Made by a program: the position numbers and the translations under genes. A DNA stretch of 64,000 nucleotides from Candidatus Nomurabacteria bacterium (GTDB taxonomy: Bacteria > Patescibacteriota > Minisyncoccia > Phycocordibacterales > SBAW01), in NCBI GenBank assembly GCA_943348815.1, contig CALQYT010000006.1, positions 2,501-66,500 of the forward strand, written 5' to 3'. Position 1 is the first letter of the stretch. Each line of letters begins with the position of its first letter. This document shows positions 1,066 to 16,338 of this stretch, piece after piece. The notes beneath the pieces are model-generated. The model had not been told where the DNA came from, ran no database searches, and saw only the letters and a program-made list of their open reading frames with translations.

Positions 1066-1626
1066 CTACGATTTGTCGCTCTTGCCCCAATTCCGCTCCC
1101 GCATCAGGTCTTTCATTTTCTGGAAGCCTTTGTTATCGGCTGTGGGGATTTCTTTAGCAGATTTCCTTAGTACATTTACCGTCTCCCCGTTTGGACTATT
1201 AGAAGTGCGTTTTGAGGACTGTTCTTGTTGCTGTTTTAGGACTGTTTGAATAGTCCTCGCAGTGAGACTATTCATGGGTAGCCATTTTGAGCAATCAAGC
1301 AGGTGGTACAAGTTGCCCCTCCTCCCTTTGGATCGCCGGACAGTAATCATGCGAAGTGCCTCTAGGACTTTTAGAGAACGCGAGATTTTACTACGGCTCT
1401 TAGTGCCTATCTCGCGCATGAGCGTTTCGTATGAGGGAAAGCATGACTGGGTGGTAGCGTTTGCGTGCCGCGCTAGCGCCACATATACGGCGGCGTCTTT
1501 ACGCAGAAACCGCAGATAGTCCTTATCTACAAATTCGTTGTCTATGTAAAACCGCGACTTTTTATATCGCGCTCTAATACGCGGCTCATTAGTTTCCTTG
1601 TCCATAGATTTCATCACTTCCTCCAT
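1066..1626 (-). CDS. Winged-helix/HTH DNA-binding protein, possibly a replication-organizer or RDF-like protein. Hypothetical.
   Basis: 186-aa ORF immediately downstream of the recombinase start. Basic protein with a central wHTH-like segment (ETLMREIGTKSRSKISRSLKVLEAL). Confidence 0.45.
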   Translation of the reverse strand: MEEVMKSMDKETNEPRIRARYKKSRFYIDNEFVDKDYLRFLRKDAAVYVALARHANATTQSCFPSYETLMREIGTKSRSKISRSLKVLEALRMITVRRSKGRRGNLYHLLDCSKWLPMNSLTARTIQTVLKQQQEQSSKRTSNSPNGETVNVLRKSAKEIPTADNKGFQKMKDLMRERNWGKSDKS

Positions 1627-2131: not shown

Positions 2132-2890
2132 CTAAGCAACCCTATAAAAAGACTTATCTTGCAGAGCAAATAAATACTTGCCGCATTTTTCCTCAACTTT
2201 CAAGTTGAGGCGGTAAACCGCGTAGCGGATTGAACGCCTACCTTTTTGGATATCACGAAGAATAGCGGGGTCTATTGCGTTAGCTATATCGTCCCACTGG
2301 ATAACCTCATTTACTTGTCTTTGAAACGCGAGGCGGCAAACATCCTGTTGTCGGGAGTTATACCTAATAGGCACTATGCCGCCGTTCCACATTATCCGTG
2401 GCGGGTCGTTATAAAATTTCGCCACGGCTGGGTTAGTGTTCTTTAACACTCCGTCTTTATCGGGGATGGAGACATCGTACTTCTTGCACTCGGCATATAT
2501 TTTTTCAGGGTCAATAATAGTAAATTTTAGATGCGCCCTTAGGATATTTCCCTGCACCTCGTTTTCATTTATTAGCGTGCATAGCTCGCTAAATCTTTCC
2601 ACATGATATTTGTTTAACGCCGCCGTCCTTGCCTCGCGGCGTTCCCTTGTGTAGTCAGCATCAGGAATTGTAAGTTTGCCGTCTTGATAATAATCAGTAG
2701 TCTCCGTAATTTTAGGGAAAGGGGTCTTGTTCTCATATATCTCAATATCAACCATCTCCCGTTCTCGCAGGGGAGAGTGCTCTATAAGCTTAGTGAGTAT
2801 GTAGCTTACATACTCGTGCGTTTTTGATGCCTTTTCGTCAACTTCTGCTTTAATCATCACTTTTTCATCACGAGCTTGCGTGGCCCCCAT
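2132..2890 (-). CDS. Hypothetical protein
   Basis: 252-aa ORF with no recognisable motif. A start at the internal MIKAEV is also possible. Confidence 0.45.
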   Translation of the reverse strand: MGATQARDEKVMIKAEVDEKASKTHEYVSYILTKLIEHSPLREREMVDIEIYENKTPFPKITETTDYYQDGKLTIPDADYTRERREARTAALNKYHVERFSELCTLINENEVQGNILRAHLKFTIIDPEKIYAECKKYDVSIPDKDGVLKNTNPAVAKFYNDPPRIMWNGGIVPIRYNSRQQDVCRLAFQRQVNEVIQWDDIANAIDPAILRDIQKGRRSIRYAVYRLNLKVEEKCGKYLFALQDKSFYRVA

Positions 2891-2978
2891 TTTAGCCCTT
2901 TTTGTCTAAGGTTGCCTATGCATTGGACACCCACCCCCACCCCCCGGGGGGTGGGTGATAATGATAATCAGTATTGGA

Positions 2979-3583
2979 GCCACCCCGCCAAAAAATGAGT
3001 TCCCCCGCGTGGCCGCCGTCCTCGGCGGCGCAGAGATGCCGGTAGGCGTCTCTGCGAGTGGAAAGGCGGTAGCCTTGACTAGACAAGCCCCGCGACCGCT
3101 ACGGCGGGCGCGGAGGATGTCGCGCCGAACGACACACAACCCCATATCTCCAACGATGGGGGTTTGTGGCGTTCGGCCAATAAATGGGAGCCGTAGAGGA
3201 GGCAAATACCACCAACTTGCAGGCAAGTTGCGCGGCACCCGCGACTTTTCATAGAAAAGGGAGTATTTGTCTCTGTTCGCCGGTGCAAACGCACTTTAGT
3301 GCGTTTGGGGCACAAAAAAATTTCTGCTCAACGCGAAGACCAGTAAAGGATAGGCTTTACGCAGGCTGTAGCGGGGAGGGGAAATTTTCTTGCGCCGCAC
3401 TTTAGCGCCGCCGGCGGCTATGGCTTTCCATCCTATTGGCGACATCCTCCGCGCCCGCCGTAGCGGTCGCGGGGCTTGTCTAGTCAAGGCTACCGCCTTT
3501 CCACTCGCAGAGACGCCTACCGGCATCTCTGCGCCGCCGAGGACGGCGGCCACGCGGGGGAACTCATTTTTTGGCGGGGTGGC
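2979..3583. repeat. 605-bp element: perfect 145-bp inverted repeats (2979-3123 and 3439-3583) around a 315-bp core that has its own hairpins
   Basis: The mirrored ORF pairs 2955-3254/3296-3553 and 2906-3238/3390-3605 share identical peptides, proving exact reverse-complement arms. The core contains perfect hairpins (ccgaacg..cgttcgg and caaacgcac-ttta-gtgcgtttg). Confidence 0.8.
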
Positions 3584-3609
3584 GTTTAAAACTAGCTTGC
3601 GGTAGCGAG

Positions 3610-3822
3610 CTAGAAGTCTATAAGGTTTTTGAGCTTAAAGCCGAGGGCTCTAGCTATCTTTTCCATATTGGTGAGGGTGATGTTCTTTTCTGCGCGCTCG
3701 ATCATGCCTATGTAAGTGCGATGTACCTTGGCGAGTTCGCCGAGCCGCTCTTGGGATATACCGCGTTTATCGCGCTCCTGGCGTACACGGTTGCCGAACT
3801 TGATGAGTATCTGCTTATTCAT
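3610..3822 (-). CDS. XRE-family (Cro/CI-type) HTH transcriptional regulator
   Basis: 70 aa with the canonical HTH_3 signature (ISQERLGELAKVHRTYIGMIERAEKNITLTNMEKIARALG). Confidence 0.85.
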   Translation of the reverse strand: MNKQILIKFGNRVRQERDKRGISQERLGELAKVHRTYIGMIERAEKNITLTNMEKIARALGFKLKNLIDF

Positions 3823-3879
3823 ACCTACATCCCCAGTGTAGGTATTGCTAACTATAGACTCTACATACTATAGTTAGCA
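3823..3879. promoter_or_regulatory. Divergent control region with two palindromes (acctaca-N6-tgtaggt and tgctaactatag-N10-ctatagttagca); candidate operators for the XRE regulator
   Basis: Perfect inverted repeats directly upstream of the XRE start, between it and the plus-strand gene block. Confidence 0.4.
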
Positions 3880-3895
3880 GGTATGGATAAGGAAT

Positions 3896-4117
3896 TTGGG
3901 CGTTTGGCGGCTAACTAATCCTCGTATGGACCTCTTACGCAGGATAGGGCATGTGCTTGGGGTACTGTGGGTAATACTTCTGGTTGTTGGGTGGGTATTT
4001 ATCTCGATTGTAGACATAGCTGTAGGGTGCCCTCCGCCGCCCTTTGCCCACCAATGTTTTAAACAGCGATATATACACGACTGTTTGATATTGCATAAGG
4101 AGGACTGCAACGAGTAG
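3896..4117 (+). CDS. Small hydrophobic hypothetical protein
   Basis: 73-aa ORF with a TM-like stretch. An overlapping antisense ORF (3935-4255) makes the call uncertain. Confidence 0.2.
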   Translation: MGVWRLTNPRMDLLRRIGHVLGVLWVILLVVGWVFISIVDIAVGCPPPPFAHQCFKQRYIHDCLILHKEDCNE

Positions 4118-14473: not shown

Positions 14474-14549
14474 TGGAGCCAGAGGCCGGGATCGAACCGG
14501 CGACCTGCGGTTTACGATACCGCTGCTCTACCAACTGAGCTACTCTGGC
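14474..14549 (-). tRNA. tRNA-Thr(CGT), CCA encoded
   Basis: Hand-folded cloverleaf: acceptor GCCAGAG/CTCTGGC, anticodon stem GCGGT/ACCGC, loop ATCGTAA. Confidence 0.8.
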
Positions 14550-14576
14550 GTACTACCCTACTCCGGAATACCCGGG

Positions 14577-14649
14577 AGCCGAAGCCCGGAATCGAACCGG
14601 GGACCTACTCCTTACCATGGAGTTGCTCTACCATCTGAGCTACTTCGGC
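14577..14649 (-). tRNA. tRNA-Thr(GGT)
   Basis: Acceptor GCCGAAG/CTTCGGC, anticodon stem ACTCC/GGAGT, loop ATGGTAA. No encoded CCA. Confidence 0.75.
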
Positions 14650-14705
14650 AATGCAAAAACAGTATCGCATTTCTGCGCTTTTGGCGAGCCCAAAAAAATA
14701 AGCGA

Positions 14706-15314
14706 CTAGTCTACGGTACGTATAGTGGAAGCTTCAACGGTGAGTTGCGAAGTGTCCGACTGGAGCGTGCCGTTGATTGTAATGGTGTCGCCAACGTGCA
14801 CGTTGGCTAGTGAAATAGTTTTGCCGTCGTGATTGAGTACCCGCGTACCAAAATGTCGTGCACCGTAATCTTGTCCGTTGGTGGTTACTAGCCACGTAAA
14901 GTCTGCTCCGCCCCAGAGCGTTCGTACCAAAAGTTGTGAGCTGCTGACCGATTGCACTTGCGCATTGCGCAACAGCACCAAACCGGTGGGTGCAATGTGC
15001 ATCTCGACCATGGAGCTCTGCTCGGCAACCATGCTCACCGGTGCCTCAACACCCGCAAAAGCGGGGCGCGCTGCCGCCATCGAGAGAGCAAAAGCTCCCA
15101 CCGCAATTCCAAAAAAGGCGGAGGTAACAAAAAGTGCGGCAAAAGGCCGTTCGCGCACTATTGTCGGCGCGTACTGCCACACGCGGCCAAAAACACCGCC
15201 GAATATTCCTTCGATCTCTCTACCCAACCCAGCAGCGTCGGTATGCAGTTTGCGCGCGGCTTCGGTAGCAGCCGTTGAAAAATCTTGTGCGACAAGTTGG
15301 GGTTGAGAGCTCAT
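14706..15314 (-). CDS. Hypothetical membrane-anchored protein
   Basis: The ORF extends to 15479. The start MSSQPQ at 15314 is preferred but uncertain. There is a TM segment near the N-terminus. Confidence 0.4.
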   Translation of the reverse strand: MSSQPQLVAQDFSTAATEAARKLHTDAAGLGREIEGIFGGVFGRVWQYAPTIVRERPFAALFVTSAFFGIAVGAFALSMAAARPAFAGVEAPVSMVAEQSSMVEMHIAPTGLVLLRNAQVQSVSSSQLLVRTLWGGADFTWLVTTNGQDYGARHFGTRVLNHDGKTISLANVHVGDTITINGTLQSDTSQLTVEASTIRTVD

Positions 15315-15504
15315 CAACACACAATACGCAGGATATGATGAAGCCCCCATGAGTAAATCTATGCGCGAGAGACGGGCTTGGCTTTCGGTCGAACCTTGCC
15401 GTCGCAAAGTTCGCCTGCAGCCCCGGCTCGGTATTTTGCAAGTGCAAAATATACCTCCGCCGTTCAAGTCCCTCGGCAAGCACGCTTGCCGCTCTCGCTA
15501 CGCA

Positions 15505-15528
15505 AAAATCCCCCTGCGGGGATTTTTG
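15505..15528. terminator. Hairpin terminator adjacent to the tRNA-Asp 3' end
   Basis: aaaaatcccc-ctgc-ggggattttt, a 10-bp stem with T-tracts on both sides. Confidence 0.55.
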
Positions 15529-15532
15529 TCTG

Positions 15533-15606
15533 CGCGAGAGACGGGACTTGAACCCGCAACCTCGTCCGTGACAGGGACGCGCTCTAACCAGTTGAGCTAC
15601 TCCCGC
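15533..15606 (-). tRNA. tRNA-Asp(GTC)
   Basis: Acceptor GCGGGAG/CTCTCGC, anticodon stem CGTCC/GGACG, loop CTGTCAC. Confidence 0.8.
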
Positions 15607-15738
15607 ATTTTGTTGAGTCCCGACGCCTGGGTCGGGAGGCCGACCAAAGCGTCGGCCCTACTCCCGCAAAAGCTAACCTTCAATAACCGAGGGCAAGCAG
15701 GCGCATTCTAGCGTAAAACGAGCGCCCTTTCCAGCGCA

Positions 15739-16113
15739 TTAATTCCGGTCGCGGCGGTCTTTGAGCTCGCGAAATTTGCGGAATTCTGCTTCGAGCATCT
15801 CAAGCTCCGAGTCTTCCATCTCTTCGATATCAATTAATTTATTGCGCGCCGGGCCGATAGCTTTAATGAGCTCGTCGAGCTTAAGATGCACGGCATGCGA
15901 GTCGCGGTTTTGGGTGTTTTGAATCAAGAAAACCATCAAGAAGGTCAAAATCGTCGTGCCTGTGTTTATCACCAACTGCCAGGTGTTGGAGTAGTCGAAC
16001 CACGGTCCGGTGAGGGCCCACACCACCACCAATAAAAATGCCAGCATAAACGCCCACGAGCTGCCCACCAGCTCGGCGGTTTTGTGTGCAATACGGCGAA
16101 ATACTTCGTGCAT
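15739..16113 (-). CDS. Low-affinity iron permease-like small membrane protein
   Basis: 124 aa. WQLVINTGTTILTFLMVFLIQNTQNRD..KLDELI pattern, as recalled for this family. Confidence 0.45.
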   Translation of the reverse strand: MHEVFRRIAHKTAELVGSSWAFMLAFLLVVVWALTGPWFDYSNTWQLVINTGTTILTFLMVFLIQNTQNRDSHAVHLKLDELIKAIGPARNKLIDIEEMEDSELEMLEAEFRKFRELKDRRDRN

Positions 16114-16143
16114 GTTCCTAGTATACCCCTTTTAATCTGCGAG

Positions 16144-16217
16144 TACCGGGGGTGGGAGTTGCACCCACGACCTCAGCGTTATGAATGCTGTGCTCTTACT
16201 AACTGAGCTACCCCGGT
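16144..16217 (-). tRNA. tRNA-Met(CAT), elongator type
   Basis: Acceptor ACCGGGG/CCCCGGT with the 1:72 position paired. Anticodon loop TTCATAA. Confidence 0.7.
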
Positions 16218-16266
16218 ATGCAGGAAAAATACCACGCAACGAGCGCTTTTCCAAATTAACTTCTTG

Positions 16267-16338
16267 TTGCGGGGGCGGGAATTGCACCCGCGACCTTCAG
16301 GTTATGAGCCTGACGAGCTACTACTGCTCCACCCCGCG
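16267..16338 (-). tRNA. Initiator tRNA-fMet(CAT)
   Basis: Near-identical to the E. coli tRNA-fMet 5' half (CGCGGGGTGGAGCAG..GCTCGTC.GGCTCATAACC), with a C1:A72 mismatch. Confidence 0.8.

Follow-up and report, generated by a model that had tools for sequence, protein, structure and literature searches.

Invertible DNA switches such as fimS of E. coli, hin of Salmonella, or cwpV and flgB of C. difficile are segments of a few hundred bp that are bounded by inverted repeats of about 9-30 bp, lie between transcription units and are found in both orientations. Similar traits were observed for a 605-bp element located at positions 2979-3583 of a 64,000-nt stretch of a Candidatus Nomurabacteria genome (contig CALQYT010000006.1, positions 2,501 to 66,500; this whole stretch is hereafter the window, and its own numbering is used), in which two long arms that are inverted repeats of each other enclose a core. 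Unlike the repeats of the known switches, these arms measure 145-198 bp in the window and its relatives and are themselves structured and under selection; furthermore, neither a promoter nor an adjacent dedicated invertase was detected, and the two orientations are known from different contigs, not from within one population. Long perfect or near-perfect inverted repeats that are homogenised by recombination or gene conversion, with two isomers of the region in between, also occur in the yeast 2-micron plasmid and in chloroplasts, but the region flipped here is only ca. 315 bp long and non-coding, the repeats hold selected local hairpins and no FLP/FRT-type system was identified.

Other described systems share part of this organisation. 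In the antisense systems ColE1 RNAI/RNAII, phage P1 c4 and P4 CI immunity RNAs, complementary multi-hairpin sequences are found, as here, upstream of replication or lytic genes, their complementary parts may share one leader region, and selection on hairpins together with complementarity would fit both situations; these parts are nevertheless 10-110 nt long with known transcripts and promoters, whereas the arms of the element (145-198 nt) show no promoter and are known from sequence alone. The intergenic region of Ff phages and the ssoA-type single-strand origins likewise consist of several hundred non-coding nt with consecutive hairpins, which act there in single-stranded DNA, but they lack long perfect inverted-repeat flanks and inversion, and the island that carries the element has no rolling-circle Rep. 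Finally, the Correia, ERIC, RPE and REP/BIME repeats are also non-coding and hairpin-forming with terminal inverted repeats, but are multi-copy, dispersed and often flanked by target duplications, as opposed to a single copy in one syntenic slot. No description of an element of the present type was found in the literature and, to our knowledge, the mobile elements of Patescibacteria (Candidate Phyla Radiation) have barely been characterised and none of their cis-regulatory or RNA elements is known.

The element forms an integral part of a family of integrative islands of Patescibacteria, in which it is a non-coding module present in single copy. A repeat search, with which a self-blastn comparison agrees, delimited two arms of 145 nt each that are 100% complementary and separated by 315 nt (Table 1). 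The outer ends of the repeat are abrupt and the flanking sequences (..TATTGGA and GTTTAAA..) are unrelated to each other. No other inverted repeat of 30 nt or more within 5 kb was detected across the window, except for a 31-nt pair with 74% identity that is at chance level, and no second copy of any part of the element was detected in the window by blastn. The GC content of the element (0.54-0.61) exceeds that of its flanks (about 0.44-0.47). From its outer to its inner end, the left arm is composed of a conserved 30-nt terminal box and four GC-rich local hairpins; the box occurs at the element ends only and was not found elsewhere in the islands, e.g. at attachment (att) sites, nor were hairpins with a GGTA loop found as a genome-wide repeat. 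The original prediction, made from the letters of the window, had described a 605-bp element with perfect 145-bp arms, two perfect hairpins and an A-rich stretch in the core, no plausible protein, and a location between a hypothetical gene and an XRE repressor gene inside an integrase-bearing island, all of which agrees with the present data; the core has an A7 run at 3314-3320.

Relatives were collected as contigs found through the 252-aa hypothetical protein encoded on one side of the element and through the XRE protein encoded on the other. The former has only a handful of close relatives, all of them in Patescibacteria-type samples. The 145+315+145 layout was found in six further contigs, one of which begins inside an arm, and six window-type sequences align over 605 columns (145+315+145) with zero gaps and 83-88% identity to the window; the element of contig L047 is also exactly 605 nt long. 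A remote lineage, represented by L004, has only the outer 30 nt of the arms in common with the window (GCCACCCCGCCAArAAtTGArTTCCCCyGC, 87% identity), and more distant contigs (L009-L011, L014 and L015) display a diverged terminus at the same spot, where they break. The cassette occupies a constant slot, with the XRE gene on one side and, on the other, the promoter of a replication/integration operon that begins with 69/240-aa proteins. XRE relatives with 84-90% identity that reside in other backbones lack the element, which indicates that the cassette is tied not to XRE itself but to a backbone that includes the 240-aa protein, the O-like initiator and the 548-aa integrase. The element, present in single copy, is rare: scanning 185,579 GTDB species-representative genomes for the terminal motif returned only L013 (the two ends of one element) and one chance match, phage and plasmid collections gave no match with blastn in distant mode, and viral contigs scanned for the 252-aa family, the terminal motif and a 26-mer of the arm yielded nothing.

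Comparison of the window with L022 points to selection acting on the element. In this pair, the XRE and recombinase proteins are 99% and 95% identical and their four-fold degenerate sites differ by 31% and 41%, respectively, whereas the element has diverged by 15%. Substitutions among relatives are evenly spread over the three codon phases (p = 0.58-0.88). The slower divergence than at four-fold sites and the lack of codon periodicity indicate that the element is constrained, i.e. under purifying selection, but non-coding; the mirrored open reading frames (ORFs) that can be read in it were rejected as protein genes, since the substitutions show no codon phase and the hairpin changes are compensatory. 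Synonymous sites between the window and L004 are saturated (15 of 25 differ), which makes the retention of the architecture and of the terminal box in the L004 lineage meaningful.

The selection relates to local folding. The core folds better than shuffled sequences (z = -8.7 on the plus strand and -8.0 on the minus strand of the window), an arm alone forms its four GC-rich hairpins with z of about -4.2, and the whole element, as a single strand, is predicted to form one giant hairpin. Among relatives, substitutions cluster in loops or occur as compensating pairs. The consensus of the core on the plus strand comprises 118 pairs with 97.5% of the cells paired, and six pairs (13 cells) have changed on both sides; the resulting covariation of 0.090 compares with at most 0.031 when partners were slid by 1-3 columns and was reached by none of 500 shuffles. 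Helix 8 is the clearest case, with a change from CAAACGCAC/GTGCGTTTG to CACGAGCAC/GTGCTCGTG in which three of the six aligned sequences have both partners altered in three adjacent pairs (165/182, 166/181 and 167/180), and in helix 1 the pair 3/52 shows a compensatory C-G to U-A change in relatives. In the arm hairpins, three pairs have changed on both sides (covariation 0.067 versus at most 0.036 in controls), as illustrated by AAGGC-GGTA-GCCTT becoming AAGAC-GGTA-GTCTT. In the left arm of L022 only, CCGCCG/CGGCGG has become CCGTCG/CGACGG, so that the local hairpin is kept while identity with the other arm is lost; a C-G to T-A change is also seen in the L004 lineage, in L016. These compensatory changes, including that of the L022 left arm, indicate that what is selected is the local folding of a single strand and not just complementarity between the arms, and the fact that the hairpin sequences are mutually unrelated argues against a set of palindromic protein-binding sites.

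The loops of these hairpins recur as GGTA. In L047, both GGTA loops of the right arm (3809-3953) read GGGA as a result of parallel T-to-G changes confined to that arm, a hint that the loops may be functionally equivalent and of a GNNA type. As to the strand concerned, the core folds 13-23 kcal/mol better on the plus strand of the window in every member and in L004, and wobble pairs favour the same strand (41 versus 17 cells; 16 versus 8 columns), a bias that is suggestive, not decisive.

The arms have evolved in concert. Within an element they differ from each other at 0, 1, 3, 6, 8 or 12 positions, whereas both arms of the window differ from every other arm at 20-30 positions, and the L004 arms are perfect, yet unalignable to those of the window beyond the outer 30 nt. 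Transitions in both senses and transversions are evenly represented among the mismatches between arms, which indicates that arm identity results from copying (gene conversion) and not from selection for a perfect duplex. Arm alleles are common to different elements, and blocks of similarity stop at or inside the arms: the right arm of L022 resembles the window in its outer part, and likeness to L020 stops at the arm end; the arms thus also act as exchange points between islands.

An inversion between the arms has also taken place. The core of L024 is reversed relative to XRE when compared to L017, L020, L021, L022, L025, L026, L047 and the window, and the cargo region of L024 is the same as that of L025 (2 differences in 4 kb). 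Because the arms of L024 differ at 8 positions, its assembly at k = 141 is unambiguous and the inversion is genuine. With arms that are alike, reversal of the core amounts to reversal of the entire cassette. In a second contig, L002, the core is connected to the left flank the other way round, but this contig was rejected as a proof of inversion, since the 145-nt arm exceeds k = 141 and both orientations give identical k-mers.

Next to the element, a hairpin that overlaps the XRE stop codon looks, from its sequence, like a weak terminator of this gene, and on the opposite side a promoter-like site precedes the operon of the 252-aa gene (Table 1), so that the element fills the gap between two co-directional transcription units. 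We tentatively propose that it may be a structured single-stranded cis module, probably RNA, whose arms recombine and flip the core. Under the simplest assumption, the folded single strand would be an RNA of about 0.6 kb, the alternative being transient single-stranded DNA; recombination or gene conversion between the arms would keep them alike and flip the core, and the orientation would determine whether one cassette strand or the other is appended to transcripts running through the weak XRE terminator. An orientation-dependent cis effect on the neighbouring operon would result, e.g. by way of a barrier, of a processing site or of antisense pairing between the arms with their many hairpins; it is in this sense that we infer transcription, a recombination mechanism and a regulatory effect. 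A more specific version, which we regard as rather improbable, is a promoter-less flip-flop operating without a dedicated invertase, in which recombination between identical arms would reverse the whole 605-bp unit and transcripts from the XRE side would carry the folded ca. 0.6-kb RNA or its complement, providing a heritable two-state control of the replication/integration operon.

Several points weigh against this proposal. A large structured non-coding RNA, one of the candidates of the original prediction, is compatible with the covariation, but Rfam 15 returned nothing at the gathering threshold over the window or five relatives, matches with E values up to 10 over the region being noise, and no sigma-70-like promoter was found inside the element in the four members searched, where relaxed criteria gave weak, non-conserved candidates only; other promoters of the island match the consensus well, unlike the interior of the element. 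As a terminator-like hairpin follows XRE, the cassette is not proven to be transcribed, and within the element itself only weak terminator-like hairpins occur, none of them convincing. A perfect RNA duplex of 145-198 bp is normally cut by RNase III, which would be odd for a stable structured RNA. The strand bias is weak when counted in columns and could reflect base composition, the modest covariation statistics derive from about four independent lineages only, and just one of nine orientable contigs (L024) is inverted; as L024 also differs elsewhere from its nearest relative, the inversion may reflect a rare event in evolution instead of a switch in operation.

Among alternatives, a classical DNA inversion switch would have a core with an orientation-dependent promoter or terminator, flipped by the island serine recombinase or RecA and gating read-through from XRE into the operon. 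Such a switch, also put forward in the original prediction, is in line with the inverted core of L024 and hence the existence of both orientations, with a cassette that lies exactly between two transcription units and with an island serine recombinase similar to DNA invertases. Helices 9-11 are reminiscent of an A-tract/hairpin/T7 terminator that is stronger on one strand and, because a T7 follows the structure on the opposite strand, look like a putative bidirectional terminator, and the L004 core has a hairpin plus T7 on one strand. We nevertheless consider it unlikely: no promoter was found in the core, the terminator-like features are weak, and the downstream operon has its own promoter beyond the arm. 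The hairpin selection along the whole 605 nt, arms included, would be left unexplained, and known invertases use recombination sites 5-20 times shorter than these arms. No dedicated invertase lies beside the segment, the sole recombinase being of the integrase type, a 548-aa serine recombinase located where the island meets tRNA-Gln, next to the tRNA attachment site.

There is a similarly small chance that the hairpin array is a single-stranded-DNA signal, serving as a site of priming or of complementary-strand initiation whenever the island is single-stranded (e.g. upon uptake or in the course of rolling-circle or strand-displacement replication), in which case the inverted arms would allow it to function whichever strand is exposed. 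This would account for selected hairpins in a region without a detectable promoter, in an island that encodes an O-like initiator and a SpoVG-like nucleic-acid-binding protein. The recurring GGTA loops, a GTAG at the loop-stem junction and TAGCG motifs also recall such sites, but this resemblance was noted by eye only; moreover, no HUH Rep or relaxase is found in the island, and the initiator (49% identity to that of L022) does not co-vary with the element (85%).

Replication origins of recognisable types were rejected as candidates. Neither iterons nor direct-repeat families were detected beyond a 13-nt pair, DnaA boxes and an AT-rich region are absent from the element, whose GC is about 0.6, and its conservation is not matched by that of the O-like initiator, leaving a theta-type (iteron/DnaA) origin, and the replication origin envisaged initially, unsupported. 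A rolling-circle origin with a recognisable partner was rejected likewise, since Pfam and PHROG scans of the island proteins revealed no HUH Rep or relaxase and the 252-aa protein has neither an HUH motif nor a matching fold.

Less likely still, the element might be a functionless or selfish palindrome, born from a one-time inverted duplication and kept by gene-conversion homogenisation, and would then serve at most as a homology patch for module exchange between islands. The arm alleles common to different elements and the mosaic boundaries at or inside the arms would be expected from such a patch. It would fit poorly with the evident purifying selection (15% divergence versus 31-41% at synonymous sites, with a gap-free alignment), with the compensatory changes in local hairpins, and with an architecture and terminal box kept in a lineage whose neutral sites are saturated.

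Terminal inverted repeats, a conserved outer 30 nt and the absence of coding capacity had also suggested a miniature inverted-repeat transposable element (MITE)-like, non-autonomous transposon with long terminal inverted repeats, which was rejected as very improbable given one copy in the window, one locus plus one chance match in the 185,579 genomes, no target-site duplication at the window flanks, no direct repeat in relatives and the same syntenic slot in every case. Finally, an assembly artefact in the form of a collapsed or fabricated palindrome, which a 145-nt arm near the read length and k = 141 and a window core orientation that k-mers of 141 nt or less do not fix might have suggested, can practically be dismissed, as the same layout comes from several assemblers, flanks are unique on both sides and relatives with arms only 90-97% alike assemble unambiguously.

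Indeed, contigs end where a repeat of this length would make them end. Contig L001, assembled from another sample with MEGAHIT at k141, ends 141 nt into the arm, as expected for a repeat longer than k; k127 and k141 contigs end 127 or 141 nt into the arm, and Logan contigs of relatives (k = 31) begin either precisely at the inner end of the arm or 30 nt inward from its outer end. The same architecture was recovered with MEGAHIT, in a SPAdes-style assembly and in metagenome-assembled genomes (MAGs) from JGI and NCBI. The element thus breaks short-read assemblies at predictable points, which is relevant to MAG quality.

The coordinates of the element, its parts and neighbouring features are given in Table 1 together with the dimensions of related elements.

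Table 1. Features of the element and of its surroundings in the window, and related elements in other contigs
Feature	Position	Strand	Remarks
HTH_36 / O-like initiator gene	1066-1626	-	
252-aa hypothetical gene	2132-2890	-	
Operon-side flank	2889..2957	-	outside the repeat; invariable neighbour
Promoter-like site TAGGCA-18-TAAAAT	2918 to 2889	-	precedes the 252-aa gene operon
Left arm	2979..3123	+	faces the 252-aa gene
Terminal box GCCACCCCGCCAAAAAATGAGTTCCCCCGC (CCCCGCC-N12-CCCCyGC)	2979..3008	+	outer end of left arm
Arm hairpin GCCGCCG-TCCT-CGGCGGC			left arm
Arm hairpin CAGAGATGCC-GGTA-GGCGTCTCTG			left arm
Arm hairpin AAGGC-GGTA-GCCTT			left arm
Arm hairpin CCGCG-A-CCGC-TACG-GCGG-G-CGCGG			left arm
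Core	3124..3438	+	315 nt; multi-branched fold with 12 helices, better folded on the window plus strand
Helix 1	3124..3177	+	54-nt near-perfect hairpin flush with the left arm
Helix 8	3286..3307	+	perfect hairpin CAAACGCAC-TTTA-GTGCGTTTG
Hairpin CAACTTG-CAGG-CAAGTTG			further perfect core hairpin
Helices 9-11	3309..3396	+	long irregular hairpin; A7 tract 3314-3320 paired with TTTTCTT
Right arm	3439..3583	-	XRE side; exact reverse complement of the left arm
Terminal box, second copy	3554..3583	-	outer end of right arm
XRE-end hairpin CTAGCT-N10-AGCTAG + TTTT	3585..3613	-	overlaps the XRE stop codon
XRE/HTH_3 gene, 70 aa	3610-3822	-	
Element of L004 = L013 (Hainich MAG)			arms 198 nt, 100%; core 306 nt
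Element of L020 = L023			arms 97%; core 315 nt
Element of L021			arms 96%; core 315 nt
Element of L017			left arm cut by contig start; core 315 nt
Element of L022			arms 90%; core 315 nt
Element of L024			arms 92%; core 315 nt
Element of L047			3 arm mismatches; core 315 nt

In this part of the window, the island genes named below are all on the minus strand. The gene encoding the large serine recombinase is cut by the window start and encodes 548 aa in the overlapping contig L001; it is followed by genes for a 186-aa HTH_36 protein with likeness to phage O-like and DnaD-like replication initiators, a SpoVG-like protein, a 58-aa ORF and the 252-aa hypothetical protein, then by the element and the gene of the 70-aa XRE/HTH_3 protein. 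The backbone shared between islands is made of XRE, the cassette, a 69-aa ORF in some cases, a 240-aa protein, a SpoVG-like protein, the O-like replication initiator and the 548-aa serine integrase. In two contigs, a tRNA-Gln(CTG) gene (3683-3754 in L001, 9026-9097 in L004) lies on the strand opposite to the recombinase gene and overlaps its 3' end; L001 represents the island of the window itself, and its tRNA gene is situated immediately to the left of where the window begins. Two islands at least thus abut tRNA-Gln, which is probably their integration site. Another group of tRNA genes in the window, a cluster of five on the minus strand at 14474-16338 (Thr-CGT, Thr-GGT, Asp and two Met), is unrelated to the element.

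When compared to L022, the most variable backbone products are the 252-aa protein (31% identity) and the O-like initiator (49%), and the integrase, XRE and the 58-aa ORF range from 91 to 99% identity. The structure of the 252-aa protein was modelled with confidence (predicted local distance difference test, pLDDT, of 90) and matches no PDB fold except for a winged-helix-like C-terminus; its family has about 150 representatives at 50% identity in metagenomes.

On the operon side, ca. 20-35 nt from the cassette and upstream of the promoter-like site with its TAAAAT -10 element, a G-tract box occurs at 2929-2957 in the window (CACCCACCCCCCGGGGGGTGGGGGTG) and as GGGGTGGGCGGGAT(A)GGGG in relatives (L018, 1-25; L019, about 104-128; L009, about 395-420; L015, about 143-165); it could form a hairpin or a G-quadruplex. 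On the other side, ca. 700 nt unrelated to the other sequences compared are inserted in L022 (4214-4912) between the XRE stop codon and the terminator-like hairpin, which stays with the cassette despite this insert. Beyond XRE, overlapping palindromes (TGCTAACTATAG and CTATAGTTAGCA, plus a 25-nt imperfect pair) occupy 3805-3879, within the promoter region from which XRE and the cargo genes diverge; they are kept in relatives and are probably XRE operators. The 70-aa XRE family is very large in Patescibacteria, with 5,878 database clusters at E values below 1e-15, and the cargo next to it is varied (L024, L034-L046), including a restriction-modification pair, SMODS/AGS_C (CBASS-like) genes and DUF5677 with an NlpC/P60-like gene. 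This suggests that the 70-aa XRE is a common regulator of defence-type islands.

Taken together, the element combines three unusual properties, namely long arms that evolve in concert, local hairpins that are kept independently in each arm, and a core found in both orientations. If it is only a recombination patch, it is still a clear natural case of inverted-repeat concerted evolution in bacteria. If it is a working switch or a new large RNA, it would offer a handle on how these islands choose between staying integrated and replicating or excising, and also a marker for tracing the exchange of modules among them. Should the promoter-less flip-flop prove true, the cassette would represent a large structured RNA element of a new class, whose multi-hairpin arms are self-complementary and which is carried by the islands of an episymbiont lineage.

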